A stretch of DNA of 64,000 bases from Candidatus Lloydbacteria bacterium RIFCSPHIGHO2_02_FULL_50_18 (GTDB lineage Bacteria; Patescibacteriota; Minisyncoccia; Phycocordibacterales; UBA6899), in the NCBI GenBank assembly GCA_001821395.1, contig MHLM01000004.1, positions 32,001 to 96,000 of the forward strand. The letters run 5' to 3'. Below the pieces are notes generated by a model. The model was not told the origin of the DNA, ran no database searches, and saw nothing but the letters and a program-made list of their open reading frames with translations. Made by a program: the position numbers and the translations under genes. Positions 27,404 through 44,841 of this stretch are shown here, in pieces; position 1 is the stretch's first letter; every line of letters starts with the position of its first letter.

Positions 27404-27581
27404 TGAAGTCTCCTGTGTAATTTATCTAGTGTAATTATATCTCAATTTATTCAATTTGTCAATAATACCGTAATACTTCGTAAGACTCGTATGGTCTTTC
27501 GGACGTCGGAAAACGTTGGAGATGAGTCATGATGGGCTTGTTGTTCTTTACATTTTGTTTCTCACGTGTTACTCATAGTTT

Positions 27582-35600: not shown

Positions 35601-35694
35601 TGTGGTACATCAAAAATATTTCGGCCGGCATATTGACATAATCAGTTATTTTCATAGGATGAGTATTGGAAGAGTTTGAAAAGGAGAATTGACC

Positions 35695-38934: not shown

Positions 38935-39207
38935 ATGGCGCAAATAGTAAAAAAAATTCTCACTGAACATTTTGATCTCGTCGCAAATGGGAAGAAGAGA
39001 TACGAATTACGTTTGGGTGATTTTATCGCAAATGAAGGAGATGAATTGGTGCTGCAAGAATGGGATTCGAAGAGCGGGTCATATACGGGACGCGCAGTGA
39101 CGAAAAAAATAAATTTCGTTCGCAAGTTCTCACTTGAGGAGCTCTATCAGTTTTGGCCAAAAAAAGAGATCGAACAATACGGCATACAGATCCTTCAGCT
39201 TGATTGA
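38935..39207 (+). CDS. small ASCH/DUF3850-like (PUA-fold) protein
   Basis: 90 aa, ...FDLVANGKKRYELRLGDF...GDELVLQEW..., typical of DUF3850/ASCH mini-proteins. Its start is 2 nt after the pyrG stop and 28 nt before the Pif1 helicase. Confidence 0.45.
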   Translation: MAQIVKKILTEHFDLVANGKKRYELRLGDFIANEGDELVLQEWDSKSGSYTGRAVTKKINFVRKFSLEELYQFWPKKEIEQYGIQILQLD

Positions 39208-39234: not shown

Positions 39235-41130
39235 ATGATTCAAGAGACCGCTCTTACTATTATGAAAACGGGGGCGAATGTATTCCTCACGGGGGAGCCC
39301 GGGAGCGGTAAAACGCATACCGTAAACGCATATATCCGCTACCTCCGCGAGCACAACGTCAATCCTTCGATCACTGCTTCAACGGGTATCGCCGCGACGC
39401 ACGTCGGCGGGATGACCATTCATTCATGGAGCGGTATCGGCATCAAGCGTGCGCTCACCGAATATGACCTCGATGCGCTGTCCTCGAACGAAGGACTTGT
39501 GAAGCGTATCGCCAATGCAAAGGTGCTTATCATCGATGAGATATCGATGCTCGACGGCAACACGCTGGTCATGGTGGAGGCGGTCACGCGAACGCTTCGT
39601 CGCAAGCACGAGCCTTTCGGCGGACTGCAGATAATTTTCGTCGGCGATTTCTTTCAGCTGCCTCCCATCGCGGACCGGGCAAGCGGTGTTCGTGCGCAGT
39701 TTTGTTTCGAATCAACAGCATGGCGAGTGGCGAATCCCATAGTGTGCTATCTCTCCGAGCAGCACCGTCAGGAAGACACCGCGTTTCTCTCTACGCTTGG
39801 CGCCATTCGCCGCGGAGAGCTCGAGGATAGCGTCTTTGAATATATCGGCGAGAGGCACGTGCTCCCAGGTGAGCATCCACACGACATTCCGCAGCTCTAT
39901 ACGCACAACATTGATGTCGACAAAAAGAATACGGAAGAGCTCGCAAAACTTGAAACGGAAGAAAAGGTCTTTCTCATGAGCACGAAGGGGACGAGCAATC
40001 GCGTGGAGCAGCTGATCAAGGGCTGTCTTTCACCCGAGGAACTGGTGTTGAAAGAAGGCGCATCGGTGATGTTCACCAAAAATAATTTTGAAAACGGCTA
40101 TGTGAACGGCACATTGGGGACGGTGGTGGGATTCGACGAGGACAATGGTTTTCCAATTGTTGAAACATCGGGCGGAGAAAATATTACCGCGCTTCCTTCC
40201 GAATGGGCCGTTGATGATTCTGGGAAAGTGCTCGCCACCATCACTCAGGTACCGCTCCGACTCGCGTGGGCTATTACCGTGCACAAGAGCCAGGGGATGA
40301 GCCTTGATGCCGCGACGATGGATCTCTCGCGCGCATTTGAATACGGGCAAGGGTATGTGGCACTCTCTCGTGTACGCGCATTCTCGGGATTGCACATCCT
40401 CGGCATCAATCAGCGCGCATTCGAGGTGCACCCTCTTGTGCTTGAGCGCGACCTCGCGTTTCACGAGCGTTCGGATGAAGCGGAGGCGGGGTTTCTCGAC
40501 ATGTCGGACGCCGACCTCCGGAAGTTACACGAGAACTTTTTACTCGCCATTGGAGGGAATCTGGCGAAAAAAGAAATCATTGCCAAGGCATTCGGTGTTC
40601 CAAAACTGAGTACGTATGAAGAAACGCTCGCGCTCCTCAGCCCCGGGATGACGCTCGCCGCGATTGCCAAGCGTCGGGACGTGACCGAGGGGACGATCGT
40701 GGGCCATATCGAAGAACTCGCGCTACTCGGAAAGCTCCCGTCGATAGACATCGCCGCCTTTGCCGAGCTTCCTGCGTCGGTGGTGAAGGAGATAACGCAA
40801 ACGATCGAGACGATCGGAGGAGAATTTCTCAAGCCGCTCTACCTTGAATTGGATGAACGTTATTCTTATGAAACGATCCGTCTTGTTCGATTCGGAGCGG
40901 GCATTGCTCCGAAGCAAAAAGACGCCGTCGTTGCGAAAAAAGAAAAGGTAAAAAAGGTGTCACATGAAAAACCCGCAAAGCTCGGAGCGAAGTGGGGAAA
41001 GGAAGAGGAAGAACGACTCACAAAAATGTTCAAAGAGGGAAAGAAGACGAAGGACATCGCACAGACACTTGAACGGCAGTCGGGGGGTATCCGTGCTCGT
41101 TTGAAGAAGCTGGGGCTGATAAAAAAATAG
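39235..41130 (+). CDS. Pif1-family (RecD-like SF1B) ATP-dependent DNA helicase with a C-terminal HTH-like tail
   Basis: Walker A GEPGSGKTH, the Pif1 signature ITASTGIAATHVGGMTIHSWSGIG, Walker B LIIDEISM, FQLPPI and AITVHKSQGMSLD; the C-terminal region is basic with an HTH_40-like shape. Confidence 0.8.
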   Translation: MIQETALTIMKTGANVFLTGEPGSGKTHTVNAYIRYLREHNVNPSITASTGIAATHVGGMTIHSWSGIGIKRALTEYDLDALSSNEGLVKRIANAKVLIIDEISMLDGNTLVMVEAVTRTLRRKHEPFGGLQIIFVGDFFQLPPIADRASGVRAQFCFESTAWRVANPIVCYLSEQHRQEDTAFLSTLGAIRRGELEDSVFEYIGERHVLPGEHPHDIPQLYTHNIDVDKKNTEELAKLETEEKVFLMSTKGTSNRVEQLIKGCLSPEELVLKEGASVMFTKNNFENGYVNGTLGTVVGFDEDNGFPIVETSGGENITALPSEWAVDDSGKVLATITQVPLRLAWAITVHKSQGMSLDAATMDLSRAFEYGQGYVALSRVRAFSGLHILGINQRAFEVHPLVLERDLAFHERSDEAEAGFLDMSDADLRKLHENFLLAIGGNLAKKEIIAKAFGVPKLSTYEETLALLSPGMTLAAIAKRRDVTEGTIVGHIEELALLGKLPSIDIAAFAELPASVVKEITQTIETIGGEFLKPLYLELDERYSYETIRLVRFGAGIAPKQKDAVVAKKEKVKKVSHEKPAKLGAKWGKEEEERLTKMFKEGKKTKDIAQTLERQSGGIRARLKKLGLIKK

Positions 41131-41186
41131 ACAAAAATTTGAAAGCGAGAGGTATTTGACAAGTGCGATAAACTACTGCAGGATTG
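41073..41186 (+). repeat. direct repeat L (helicase 3' end plus a promoter-like 34-mer)
   Basis: About 90% identical to 42906-43018. The 34-nt core GGTATTTGACAAGTGCGATAAACTACTGCAGGAT is 100% identical in both copies and contains TTGACA. Confidence 0.8.
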
Positions 41187-41220
41187 ACGGTAGACATACA
41201 TTTCATTGAAAGAAAATATC

Positions 41221-42831
41221 ATGAGAACAATCGGTTTTCTCAGAGCTTTCTTCTCCATCTTCAAGGAGATGCGCACCTCGTATCTCCCTCCGCTCATGGT
41301 ATACATGGCTGCGGGTGTTTCCGGGATTACTGCCATCGTTGGCACGTTCTACGTGAAGGAGCGACTCGGGCTTTCTGCGGAATTTCTGAGTGCGCTCGGT
41401 TTTTGGATTGGTTTGCCGTGGGTACTCAAGATGCCTATTGGTCACCTTGTCGATCTTCTGTGGCGGTGGAAAAGCGCATTCGTAATTCTCGGAGCAGGAT
41501 TGATTGCGTCGAGCCTCGGCATTATGGTCGGACTTCTTGGTTATACCGATGCGATGCGCGAAGTTGCCAGAGTGGAAGCGTGGTATGTCATCGCGGTTCT
41601 GCTTGCGCCGATCGGGTATGTGCTCCAAGATATCGTTGCGGATGCGATGACGGTCGAAGCAGTTCCGCGCATGAATCTTGACGGCACCGCGGTGAGCGAC
41701 GCCGATCTCAAGCTGATGCACACGACCATGCAGACACTTGGTCGCATTGCGATCATCGGCGGTGGTATCCTGGTATCTCTCGTAAATATCTTTCTGCTCA
41801 CTGGTGTTGGAGATCTTCCGCCGGCGGAAAAAGCGGCTACGTATCTTTTTGTATACCAGCTTGCCCTCGCCATCCCGATGATCTCAGTGCTCGGTGTCTT
41901 GCTTGCATCGGTGTTTCGTTGGAGTGACGTACGGACGCTCGTTGCGCAAGGAAAAACGAAAGCTGAGGCCCGGGCATTTCTCGATCGAGCATGTAAGGCT
42001 CCCGCGATAAACTGGGTGTTACTTGGTGGCGGGCTTGCGTTCGCAATTGCTGCCATTACGATCGGATTGAGCAAGATCGATGGAGGCCAGGAGATTGTTT
42101 TTGGTATCTCACTTCTTATCATTCTCTTCCTCATGAATCAACTCATGAAGGAGATCAGCAAGGAGGGTCGCAGGACGCTCATTGTCACGGCGCTCCTCAT
42201 TTTCGTCTATCGCGCGATGCCGGGAGTTGGACCGGGGATAGAGTGGTGGCAGATTGATGAATTGCACTTCGATCAGGAATTCTTTGCGAAGCTGTCATTC
42301 ATCGGCAGCACGCTCGTCCTCCTCGGGATGCTCGGTTTTCGTCGTTTTATTGCTGAGCGGTCTATGGCATATGTGCTCGGATTCCTGACGGTTGCGGGAA
42401 CGTTGCTGTCGCTTCCGACAATTGGCATGTATTACGGATTGCATGAGTGGACGGCCGCTATGACCGGAGGAGTCGTCGACGCACGCTTTATTGCGATCGT
42501 CGATACGGCAATTTCATCTCCTCTAGGGCAGGTCGCAATGATTCCCATGCTTGCGTGGATCGCAAACTCGGCACCGGAGCAGCTCAAGGCGACATTCTTT
42601 GCGGTCATGGCATCGTTTACGAACCTTGCACTCTCCGCGTCCAGCCTCGGAACGAAGTATTTGAATCAGGTCTTCGTGGTGACTCGTGAAGTGAGAGACG
42701 AAGCGACGAATGCCATCATTACACAGGCGAACTACGCTGAATTGGGAACCTTGCTCATCGTGGCAACCGCACTCGGATTCGTTGTGCCAATGCTTGCCGT
42801 TTGGCTTTTGCGAAAAAAGACCAGTTACTAA
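41221..42831 (+). CDS. multi-pass membrane transporter (MFS-like, about 12 TM; family uncertain)
   Basis: About 536 aa, highly hydrophobic with 11-12 predicted TM helices. Bracketed by direct repeats L and R and followed by a terminator at 42841-42867. Confidence 0.45.
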   Translation: MRTIGFLRAFFSIFKEMRTSYLPPLMVYMAAGVSGITAIVGTFYVKERLGLSAEFLSALGFWIGLPWVLKMPIGHLVDLLWRWKSAFVILGAGLIASSLGIMVGLLGYTDAMREVARVEAWYVIAVLLAPIGYVLQDIVADAMTVEAVPRMNLDGTAVSDADLKLMHTTMQTLGRIAIIGGGILVSLVNIFLLTGVGDLPPAEKAATYLFVYQLALAIPMISVLGVLLASVFRWSDVRTLVAQGKTKAEARAFLDRACKAPAINWVLLGGGLAFAIAAITIGLSKIDGGQEIVFGISLLIILFLMNQLMKEISKEGRRTLIVTALLIFVYRAMPGVGPGIEWWQIDELHFDQEFFAKLSFIGSTLVLLGMLGFRRFIAERSMAYVLGFLTVAGTLLSLPTIGMYYGLHEWTAAMTGGVVDARFIAIVDTAISSPLGQVAMIPMLAWIANSAPEQLKATFFAVMASFTNLALSASSLGTKYLNQVFVVTREVRDEATNAIITQANYAELGTLLIVATALGFVVPMLAVWLLRKKTSY

Positions 42832-42905
42832 GAAGTAACAAACCCGCGTTCGCGCGGGTTTTTTTGCGCTATTTTTCTCTTCCAATGGGTACCCTCGGAT
42901 TGCAA

Positions 42906-43018
42906 TGAACGCCAGTCGGGAGGTATTCGCTCTCGTTTGAAAAAGCTGGGGCTGATAAAAAAAAGACATACATTTGAAGGCAAGGAGGTATTTGACAAGT
43001 GCGATAAACTACTGCAGG
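42906..43018 (+). repeat. direct repeat R, including an in-frame pseudo-fragment of the helicase C-terminus
   Basis: Would encode NERQSGGIRSRLKKLGLIKK against LERQSGGIRARLKKLGLIKK in the helicase. Four of five nucleotide differences in that stretch are synonymous. The 34-nt promoter-like core is identical. Confidence 0.8.
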
Positions 43019-43063
43019 ATGAAACAAGATCGTTTTCTTTGACGAAACTCTAAGGAGTCTGTG

Positions 43064-44053
43064 ATGATCAAAGCATTTTTTGGAGACAAGAAGTGGTTCT
43101 GGTGGGCGTACGGCGGACTTGTGTTCTTGCTCTGTTCGCTCTATGCGCAGGTGCACATGACGGTGCTTTTGAATGACTGGTATGGACGCTTCTACGACAT
43201 GATGGGCGATGTGTCAGCGCACAATCTCGACCAATTCTGGAAAGAGTTGATGAATTTCTTTTACATTGCGATCCCATATTCAATCCTTGCCAGTATTACT
43301 GGGTATTTTACAAGGCACTATGGGTTTGCGTGGAGGGAGGCAATCACTATGAGCTACCTTCCTAAATGGCGGAATGTGAAAATTGAGATCGAGGGAGCAA
43401 GCCAGCGTATCCAAGAGGACGCATCGCGTTTTGCAAAGATCGTCGAGTCACTCGGACTTCAGGTTGCTCGTGCCGTCATGGTACTCATTGCATTCCTTCC
43501 TGTGCTTTGGACATTGAGTTCACATATTCCGCTTCCATATTTCGGGCCCGTAGCTGGTTCGCTGGTGTGGGTGGCGCTGTGCACAAGCTTGGGTGGCATG
43601 ACGATTTCTTGGTTCGTCGGATATTATCTTCCGAAGCTGCAGTATAACAATGACGTTGTCGAGGCGCGCTTTCGCAAGGAGCTCGTGTATGGCGAAGATG
43701 ATAAGCAAAATCACGCGTCGATTCCGACACTACTCGAGATGTTCACCAGCGTGCGACTCAACTATCGGCGACTGTTCCTGCATTACGGGTATTTTGATCT
43801 CTGGTCTAATTTGTACGGTCAGATTATGGTACTTGTGCCGTTCATGATCGCAGGGCCGAACCTCTTTCTCCCCGCAGGTACCACAGGATTGATCACACTT
43901 GGAGTGCTGATGAAGGTCAGTAATGCCTTTGATAAGGTGCATTCGAGCTTTTCGCTTTTCATCGACAATTGGACGACGGTGACGGAACTCAGGAGTATCT
44001 GGAGGCGCCTGCATGAGTTTGAGCGAAACATCGACAAGCATCAGATGACATAA
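43064..44053 (+). CDS. sbmA: SbmA/BacA family inner-membrane transporter (peptide/antibiotic uptake family)
   Basis: Matches SbmA at NDWYGRFYD (vs NAWYAPFYD), GASQRIQEDASRFA...LIAFLPVLWTLSSHI, RKELVYGEDD and NWTTVTELRSIWRRLHEFE. SD AAGGAG upstream. Confidence 0.85.
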   Translation: MIKAFFGDKKWFWWAYGGLVFLLCSLYAQVHMTVLLNDWYGRFYDMMGDVSAHNLDQFWKELMNFFYIAIPYSILASITGYFTRHYGFAWREAITMSYLPKWRNVKIEIEGASQRIQEDASRFAKIVESLGLQVARAVMVLIAFLPVLWTLSSHIPLPYFGPVAGSLVWVALCTSLGGMTISWFVGYYLPKLQYNNDVVEARFRKELVYGEDDKQNHASIPTLLEMFTSVRLNYRRLFLHYGYFDLWSNLYGQIMVLVPFMIAGPNLFLPAGTTGLITLGVLMKVSNAFDKVHSSFSLFIDNWTTVTELRSIWRRLHEFERNIDKHQMT

Positions 44054-44096: not shown

Positions 44097-44444
44097 TTAT
44101 TTGCACTTTGGTTTTTTGGCCAGCAGACTCGCGTCGACTGCGTCTTCAATCCAGATCGAAAGGAGGTCGGGGTTTTCCATAATTTCTTCAGGAAGCGTGA
44201 AATAGCTCAGCGTTACCTTTTTTCCTTTTGCTTTGTACACAAAAGGCGTGCTCCCATATTTTTCGTATTGCGATTGATTAACCCCATCAACTTTGAAATA
44301 GAGTACGCCATTTAGAACCAGCGCAAAGATGACCCCGTCTAAGTAAACACCATAGCCGCCAAACATGGCACACGAGGTAATGCCGGGAATATGACCCATC
44401 AGGTCATGCACGATAAAATCATGGAATTCACTATTGCGCTTCAT
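44097..44444 (-). CDS. TfoX/Sxy N-terminal domain protein (competence-associated)
   Basis: FGGYGVYLDGVIFALVLNGVLYFKVD matches the TfoX_N core; 115 aa. Confidence 0.6.
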   Translation of the reverse strand: MKRNSEFHDFIVHDLMGHIPGITSCAMFGGYGVYLDGVIFALVLNGVLYFKVDGVNQSQYEKYGSTPFVYKAKGKKVTLSYFTLPEEIMENPDLLSIWIEDAVDASLLAKKPKCK

Positions 44445-44445
44445 G

Positions 44446-44841
44446 TCACCGGTTCATCCACGTGATGGTGAGTTGAAGTATCGTTGCGAAGGAGACCCAG
44501 AGAAAATAGGGTATATTCACATACGCGACCCATCGTGCGATCGGGAATATCGCCCACATCGCCCATGCGAGGGTGATGAGCACGAGGATGATGTCGAGCG
44601 AAGCTAGGGGAAGGTTTTTGATCCCGAATTGGATCGGCGTGAAGGCGAGATTGAAGATGATGTTCAAAATAAACGGAAGCAGCACCGCAAAGGGGATGCG
44701 CTTTAAGTAAAAAAGATAGCCGACGTATCCGAATGAGCCGGCGATGATGAGGTAGAGCACACTCCACACGGGTCCGAATATCCAGGCGGGGGGCGCAAAG
44801 AAGGGCTTCACGAGGGCAGCATATGATTCGTATGTTTTCAT
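44446..44841 (-). CDS. tspO: TspO/MBR family tryptophan-rich sensory protein
   Basis: KPFFAPPAWIFGPVWSVLYLIIAGSFGY signature; five TM helices, Trp-rich. Confidence 0.75.
   Translation of the reverse strand: MKTYESYAALVKPFFAPPAWIFGPVWSVLYLIIAGSFGYVGYLFYLKRIPFAVLLPFILNIIFNLAFTPIQFGIKNLPLASLDIILVLITLAWAMWAIFPIARWVAYVNIPYFLWVSFATILQLTITWMNR

Follow-up and report, generated by a model that had tools for sequence, protein, structure and literature searches.

Studies have shown that stacked orphan modules carrying 3' remnants of an upstream gene occur at type VI secretion system (T6SS) and rhs loci, and they have been attributed to homology-facilitated illegitimate recombination (PMC5361080, which cites the rhs work of Jackson et al. 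2009 for C-terminal displacement). This kind of recombination has been described in naturally transformable bacteria (de Vries and Wackernagel 2002, Prudhomme et al. 2002 and Meier and Wackernagel 2003, as cited in PMC5361080; also PMC3240628). In this study, we analysed a 64-kb stretch of the genome of a groundwater bacterium, Candidatus Lloydbacteria bacterium RIFCSPHIGHO2_02_FULL_50_18 (contig MHLM01000004.1; hereafter the window), in which the end of a Pif1-like helicase gene is followed by a BT1-family transporter gene bracketed by two direct repeats, DR-L and DR-R, and then, 3' of DR-R, by an SbmA/BacA-like transporter gene. We believe that this locus is probably a recombination scar, in which two allelic modules were joined in tandem at a hot spot of gene exchange and the promoter was duplicated. 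All coordinates are positions within the window, and related contigs or lineages are labelled L001-L182.

At rhs, contact-dependent inhibition (CDI) and T6SS loci, a conserved upstream gene is the homology anchor, downstream modules are exchanged between strains, and a newcomer pushes the older module downstream with a 3' remnant and without a recombinase. The present locus is alike in these respects, and as at a displacement scar, an orphan helicase 3' end lies between the two modules and the modules alternate at the same site in relatives. It differs in that the anchor is a housekeeping-type helicase, the modules are single importer genes instead of toxin-immunity pairs, the displaced module keeps a complete promoter and is probably expressed, and the host is a small-genome bacterium of the candidate phyla radiation (CPR). 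Homology-facilitated illegitimate recombination likewise combines one homologous crossover with one homology-free join, and its product can duplicate recipient sequence beside the insert, whereas the mechanism here is deduced from the scar alone. Replacement islands next to tRNA genes also hold variable genes between conserved flanks, differ in their contents and show inter-species transfer (here, BT1 at 96% against flanks at 75% nucleotide identity), but the present island holds 0 to 4 genes, has no integrase, and its first gene always stands on a conserved resident promoter. The integron platform (Pc and cassettes) is similar in having a fixed promoter placed to express exchangeable inserted genes, but at this locus there is no integrase and no attI/attC, the cassettes carry their own leader and terminator, and stacking would have duplicated the promoter. 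A scar of this kind at a small tRNA-adjacent hot spot, with no special control element, belongs to a known class of events that is met here in a new setting, and current understanding is not overturned by any of these findings.

The direct repeats and the proposed join

The features from the helicase gene to the second transporter gene are as follows.

39235-41130, plus strand: Pif1-like SF1B helicase with a C-terminal HTH_40 domain (Pfam PIF1 2.7e-32, HTH_40 2.3e-21)
41070-41184, plus strand: DR-L, with the live last 20 helicase codons, the stop codon (41128-41130), an 18-nt post-stop stretch and the 36-nt core (repeat finder, blastn)
41149-41184, plus strand: left core, putative BT1 promoter (-35 TTGACA 41156-41161; 17-nt spacer 41162-41178; -10 CAGGAT 41179-41184)
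41185-41220, plus strand: BT1 5' leader; module-specific, with an orthologous leader in L090; holds AGACATACATTT
41221-42831, plus strand: BT1-family (major facilitator superfamily, MFS) transporter, 536 aa (Pfam BT1 3.2e-16)
42840-42868, plus strand: BT1 intrinsic terminator, with a hairpin at 42840-42861 (stem AAACCCGCG/CGCGGGTTT, loop TTCG) and then a T-run
42869-42905, plus strand: 37-nt post-terminator tail of the BT1 module, ending at the homology-free junction 42905/42906
42906-43020, plus strand: DR-R, in which the last 19-20 helicase codons recur as an orphan (42907-42963), followed by the post-stop stretch and the 36-nt core
42985-43020, plus strand: right core, putative SbmA-like promoter (-35 hexamer 42992-42997; -10 hexamer 43015-43020)
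43064-44053, plus strand: SbmA/BacA-like transporter, 329 aa, membrane domain only (Pfam SbmA_BacA 2.5e-111)

DR-L and DR-R were 89.7% identical over 116 columns (blastn), with 10 mismatches and 2 one-base gaps, and their start-to-start spacing was 1836 nt. An earlier inspection of the DNA by its letters only (the sequence-only reading) had claimed direct repeats of about 90% identity that share a perfectly identical 34-mer. Both claims hold, with the repeat bounds shifted by a few bases and the identical core actually 36 nt long. This perfect core, GAGGTATTTGACAAGTGCGATAAACTACTGCAGGAT, closes both repeats at 41149-41184 and 42985-43020. The 34-mer had exactly 2 occurrences in the window, even with up to 3 mismatches allowed, whereas shuffles expect 0, and no match was found in the viral collection. 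From the end of the core to the ATG there are 36 nt for the BT1 gene (41221) and 43 nt for the SbmA-like gene (43064), in agreement with the earlier statement that the core lies about 35-45 nt upstream of two different transporters. The helicase end in DR-R is in frame and carries 6 substitutions relative to DR-L, 5 of which are synonymous, as the earlier description of an in-frame fossil with mostly synonymous differences had it; its stop codon was removed by a 1-nt deletion.

The identical sequence, including the 42905/42906 junction, was present in contigs L001-L008, which come from at least six samples and three assemblers. This indicates that the tandem arrangement is real and not an assembly artefact. 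A single gene enclosed by direct repeats could also suggest a mobile element; no transposase or integrase was found nearby (Pfam), there were no terminal inverted repeats and no viral-collection match, and an imperfect 115-nt repeat that holds a gene end is not a target-site duplication. We therefore regard a mobile-element insertion or an artefact as extremely improbable.

A second short repeat was observed in this region. The 12-mer AGACATACATTT lies in the BT1 leader at 41192-41203 and again at 42964-42975, directly after the orphan helicase end in DR-R, and DR-L carries AGACAAAAATTT at 41129-41140, the place matching the DR-R copy. A shared 12-mer of this length was reached in 3/5000 shuffles.

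The left side of DR-R is abrupt. Nothing upstream of 42906 resembles the helicase, so the 42905/42906 junction is free of homology, and the tail at 42869-42905 resembles neither the region upstream of DR-L nor any other locus. Counted from the BT1 stop codon through 42893, 65/65 bases were identical in L180 (GW2011_GWA2_47_7 lineage), and the 37-nt tail is therefore part of the BT1 module. An insertion or duplication-replacement at this locus had been proposed before, and an insertion/replacement event is what we also see.

The divergence of the two helicase ends tells how long, and in what state, they have been apart. Over the 19 shared codons, the proportion of synonymous differences (pS) was 0.337 and that of non-synonymous differences (pN) was 0.024. 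On the same scale, pS between the window and L175 was 0.53, and between the window and the lineages with a 78% identical helicase it was saturated at about 0.77. If the orphan had decayed neutrally in place, with half of the divergence (about 0.17 per site) falling on its 42 non-synonymous sites, about 7 changes would be expected, and at most one was seen (Poisson P about 0.007). Because non-synonymous changes are so few, we believe that the two helicase ends diverged as working gene ends in two genomes and that the orphan is young. We infer that the orphan fragment diverged under purifying selection in another genome and was joined recently.

The same numbers bear on a duplication within a single genome, by which a copy of the 115-nt helicase end and promoter was placed before an SbmA-like gene that lacked a promoter, or a gene was replaced after a tandem duplication, and the helicase part then decayed. 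No second genome is required in this case, and DR-L and DR-R are indeed closest to each other (90%, against at most 84% to any other lineage). The shortage of non-synonymous changes (at most one against about 7, P about 0.007) speaks against it; the core too should have decayed, and the order helicase, promoter, SbmA-like gene stands alone as an allele in relatives. We consider such a duplication quite unlikely.

We therefore prefer a join of two modules, which may have proceeded as follows. The parent alleles would be helicase-promoter-BT1-terminator and helicase-promoter-SbmA-like, from genomes that had already diverged (synonymous divergence about 0.34). They would have been joined by one homologous crossover and one illegitimate join at 42905/42906, that is, by homology-facilitated illegitimate recombination or, equivalently, by Campbell-type integration (single crossover) of a circularised fragment. 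The downstream module would have retained its promoter and, as the orphan fragment, the 20 final codons of the helicase gene that formerly preceded it. Because the BT1 gene ends in a terminator, the SbmA-like gene needs the second promoter, and the retention of this promoter would keep it expressed. A later short gene conversion would have made both 36-nt cores identical. If this is correct, a whole module of promoter, gene and terminator was taken from a related genome into a hot spot, each gene keeping a putative working promoter, and the locus shows at base-pair resolution how an additional importer is acquired by an uncultured CPR bacterium whose genome is very small.

The shared core as a putative promoter

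The orthologous region downstream of the helicase was recovered from nine other Lloydbacteria lineages, in which the helicase was 75-90% identical at the amino acid level. In 9/9 of these lineages, the helicase stop codon is followed by TTGACA, 16-17 nt and CA[GA][GAT]AT (the spacer is 16 nt only in L178), and from this element to the start of the following gene there are 30-90 nt. No base of the -35 hexamer TTGACA deviates in the two copies of the window or in the nine related lineages. An alignment of 10 copies from the 9 lineages showed that TTTGACA and GCA..AT are invariant, including the G before the -10 hexamer. In contrast to the hexamers, the spacers diverge: L175 shares 13/17 spacer positions with the window, L089 11/17, L178 8/17 and the rest 1-5/17. 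The promoter motif was found once per related locus, always after the helicase, and 6 matches were found in about 155 other loci. Because the hexamers and their spacing are kept at the orthologous site while the spacers diverge, we believe that the core is a sigma-70-type promoter by its comparative footprint. The importer gene behind it, whether BT1-like or SbmA/BacA-like, is placed for transcription from this putative promoter. The conserved TTGACA-N17-CAnnAT would be a rare comparatively supported promoter for this phylum.

The window holds five TTGACA-N16-18-nAnn[AT]T sites, including the motif of the core copies, and four of the five are intergenic. One is TTGACA-N16-TAGGAT at 35633-35660 (plus strand), about 35 nt upstream of a called 66-aa gene, and another is TTGACA-N17-TATAAT at 27434-27462 (minus strand); both are intergenic and could be further promoter examples. 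The contig of L175 (2307-2335), whose helicase is 90% identical to that of the window at the amino acid level, was also observed to end exactly at the last -10 base, the point at which the homology of DR-L and DR-R ends in the window. This contig end may be an assembly-graph branch, i.e., the downstream gene may be polymorphic in that population, or it may be due to chance.

An RNA element was tried as a candidate and rejected. There was no credible Rfam match for a cis-regulatory RNA, either at the gathering scores or at E values up to 10. Both leaders folded no better than their shuffles (z 0.10 and 1.97), and the fold of the core reached -2.1 kcal/mol (z 0.79). With no Rfam match and no structure above shuffles, the element would act as DNA and not as a riboswitch or leader RNA.

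The sequence-only reading had called the 34-mer a functional promoter/operator. The promoter part is supported by the nine lineages, whereas the constraint of the 34-mer as a unit is not, as the 34-mers of relatives have diverged. That reading had itself named diverged 34-mers in related genomes as evidence against constraint, and the relatives share only 1-13 of the 17 spacer positions. Even in L175, the nearest lineage, 4/17 spacer positions and 3/7 positions upstream of the -35 hexamer differ from the window. As a candidate, the whole-34-mer operator is not supported, since only the hexamers are conserved in relatives and the repeat finder found no dyad, inverted or direct repeat inside the core.

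Nevertheless, the perfect identity of the core needs an explanation. The chance that 0/12 differences hit the 36 core columns is 0.009, or 0.04 if the 13 promoter-box positions are treated as constrained. The flanks diverged neutrally (pS 0.34; in the post-stop stretch, about 25% plus two indels), and given pS 0.34 the expected chance that all of the approximately 23 unconstrained core positions are identical is about 1e-4; calibrated on L175 (7 changes in 24 free positions, pS 0.53), this chance is about 0.01. The identity is thus beyond neutral expectation and must have a cause. One such cause would be that the whole 34-36-mer is the site of a lineage-specific regulator and that both copies are kept identical for co-regulation. 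The identity above neutral expectation (P 0.009-0.04 by columns, about 1e-4 against pS 0.34) would agree with this, as would the position of both copies at promoter distance from transporter genes and the recurrence or alternation of BT1-like and SbmA-like genes at this locus, which suggests related roles. However, every relative, L175 included (4/17 and 3/7), varies freely in the spacer and in the 7 nt that precede the -35 hexamer, the core has no symmetry, no RNA structure and no Rfam family, no regulator gene is linked to the locus, and gene conversion accounts for the identity without constraint. We consider a twin operator unlikely. Because the spacers of relatives vary freely, the identity of the two cores most likely stems from a short patch of gene conversion that followed the join. 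We favour a patch whose left limit would be the stretch with the indels and whose right limit would be the point where homology ends.

Several points weigh against the joining of two modules behind a duplicated promoter. The selection test spans 19 codons, and a parental genome at 90-99% identity was not found, so the join is reconstructed and not observed. A join of two genomes alone leaves the identity of the core unexplained and needs the extra conversion step. The base composition at third codon positions (GC3), the outgroup polarisation of the six differences and the triplet site patterns of the helicase gene gave no clear signal of direction. As for the promoter, CAGGAT matches the -10 consensus TATAAT at 3/6 positions, A2 and T6 included, and a generic promoter scan (at least 9/12 matches, at least 4 per hexamer) did not call the core.

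The variable island between the helicase and tRNA-Gln

Further downstream, the window carries the following features.

44097-44444, minus strand: TfoX_N-domain protein (Pfam 1.3e-27), directly downstream of TspO
44446-44841, minus strand: TspO/MBR family protein (Pfam 6.5e-25), with orthologues in L090, L091, L092 and L176
44942-45013, plus strand: tRNA-Gln(CTG) (ARAGORN), the conserved right flank of the variable island

The comparison with relatives indicates a hot spot of gene exchange between the helicase and tRNA-Gln in this Lloydbacteria clade, with the Pif1-like helicase as its conserved left flank. Helicase orthologues (75-90% amino acid identity) precede variable cassettes in L089, L090, L091, L175, L176 and L178. 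The BT1 gene (77% amino acid identity) follows the helicase in L090, with TspO behind it and the first tRNA-Gln bases at the contig end; L089/L180 also have the helicase and then BT1 (97%). An SbmA-like gene takes this place in L091 (77%, followed by TspO and tRNA-Gln), in L092 (helicase end, 77%, then TspO and an unrelated ORF, with no tRNA on the contig) and in the short contigs L093/L094 (helicase end, 78-79%). L176/L177 carry the helicase, a 441-aa SbmA-like gene (55% identical), a 91-aa ORF, TfoX and TspO, and L178 carries the helicase, a 572-aa BT1-like gene (55%) and an inverted 459-aa SbmA-like gene (38%). Among the genomes found, only the window has BT1 and SbmA-like genes in tandem behind two promoter copies. 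TspO is present in most states of the island.

A scan of metagenomes for the helicase returned relatives that were mostly about 50% identical, and only three at 68%, each of these three with unrelated downstream genes. L095 has a small ORF together with a DinB-type polymerase and a LexA-like gene; other small genes lie in L096, where tRNA-Gln is 1.1 kb past the helicase; and in L097, tRNA-Gln directly follows the helicase within about 50 nt. In L097 (3469-5013), the helicase match was also interrupted, covering residues 1-498 and then, overlapping, 585-630, and the C-terminal linker may be deleted. In 80 species genomes, the SbmA-like gene had no conserved neighbourhood outside the close clade, and the best SbmA-like match in the species-genome collection was 74%.

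The alternation of BT1-only and SbmA-like-only loci could also arise if the clade ancestor had the full order of helicase, promoter, BT1, promoter and SbmA-like gene and the relatives lost one gene, e.g., by recombination between the repeats. A crossover of DR-L with DR-R would give helicase-promoter-SbmA-like, as in L091-L094, and BT1 and the SbmA-like gene are each about 77% identical to those of relatives in which the helicase is about 78% identical. However, the pS of 0.34 between the repeats is far below the orthologous saturation of about 0.77 between lineages, the identity of the SbmA-like gene falls to 55% in L176 and 38% in L178, with one of the two genes inverted, and BT1-only L090 would require a second, different deletion. 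An ancestral tandem is very unlikely in our opinion.

Returning to the join of two modules, we asked which of them is the newcomer. From about 41265 to at least 42893 (the terminator and 25 nt beyond), the BT1 region is 96.3% identical in nucleotides (pS 0.11) to L089 6094-7694 and L180 12029-13701, whereas the helicase and CTP synthase flanks of L089/L180 are 74-76% identical to the window (pS about 0.78). Judged by these identities, the BT1 gene is laterally mobile and was recently transferred between species. The contigs of the GW2011_GWA2_47_7 lineage (L089 at 7694, L180 at 13701, L181 and L182) end inside BT1 or at most 62 nt past its stop codon, and the region after BT1 in this lineage may be a repeat or variable region. 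L176/L177, the closest lineage with context (85% helicase), has SbmA-like, TfoX and TspO genes without BT1, in favour of BT1 as the newcomer. Two facts are neutral to this or count against it: the 96% tract has its left edge within BT1 codons 10-15, outside the helicase, and L176 shares no more than 55% identity with the window in its SbmA-like and TfoX genes. On balance, we lean slightly towards BT1, together with DR-L, as the later arrival.

The two importers and neighbouring genes

The BT1 family includes folate and pterin carriers (PMC1971073), and SbmA/BacA-type proteins import peptides and, in mycobacteria, cobalamin (PMC8442886, PMC3603451, PMC10960864). In this study, the BT1 protein passed Pfam BT1 (59.5 against a cut-off of 22) and scored 50 bits with the folate-biopterin transporter model TIGR00788 (fbt), far under the cut-off of 216. 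The SbmA-like protein passed NCBIfam NF009036 'putative transporter' (460 against a cut-off of 385), and with the SbmA equivalog NF008306 it reached 292.8 bits, below the cut-off of 492. The earlier label sbmA should therefore be replaced, the protein being a member of NF009036 that falls under the cut-off for SbmA proper. No riboswitch was found upstream of the SbmA-like genes in 11 other genomes, and neither this search nor the neighbourhood of the Nitrosomonas BT1 homologue gave a clue to the substrate. The nearest BT1 homologues outside Lloydbacteria are in Nitrosomonadaceae and Burkholderiales (63-68% amino acid identity, full length), which suggests an old transfer between phyla.

Since a copy of the same putative promoter precedes each importer gene and the second gene would be insulated by the BT1 terminator, both importers are probably expressed at similar strength and under the same conditions. 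Given two identical putative promoters, co-regulation of the two transporters is plausible. The alternation of BT1-like and SbmA-like genes at one site is a testable hint that they have related jobs. A more far-reaching view is that the promoter past the helicase is a recombinase-free expression platform in Lloydbacteria, on which importers are swapped or stacked by recombination anchored in the helicase end and the promoter, with concerted evolution or selection preserving the identity of stacked promoter copies, so that both importers respond to one signal. We hold this to be doubtful. If it were true, two unrelated transporter families would serve overlapping needs, e.g., cofactor scavenging, in these host-dependent bacteria.

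Some observations were made on the neighbouring genes. The TfoX_N-only gene (44097-44444, minus strand) begins 1 nt past the TspO stop codon; it occurs in the window and in L176/L177 (L176 13781-14131) and is absent from L090, L091 and L092. The helicase gene looks mosaic in comparison with L175 and L176: site patterns are star-like over the first 1050 nt, the segment at 40285-40885 groups strongly with L175, and the last 250 nt do so less (maximum chi-square, 0/500 permutations). The gene 5' of the helicase (38935-39207) varies as well. It encodes DUF3850 in the window and L175, whereas at the same position L089, L091 and L178 encode a protein of about 300 aa, and L176 has two ORFs on the minus strand.

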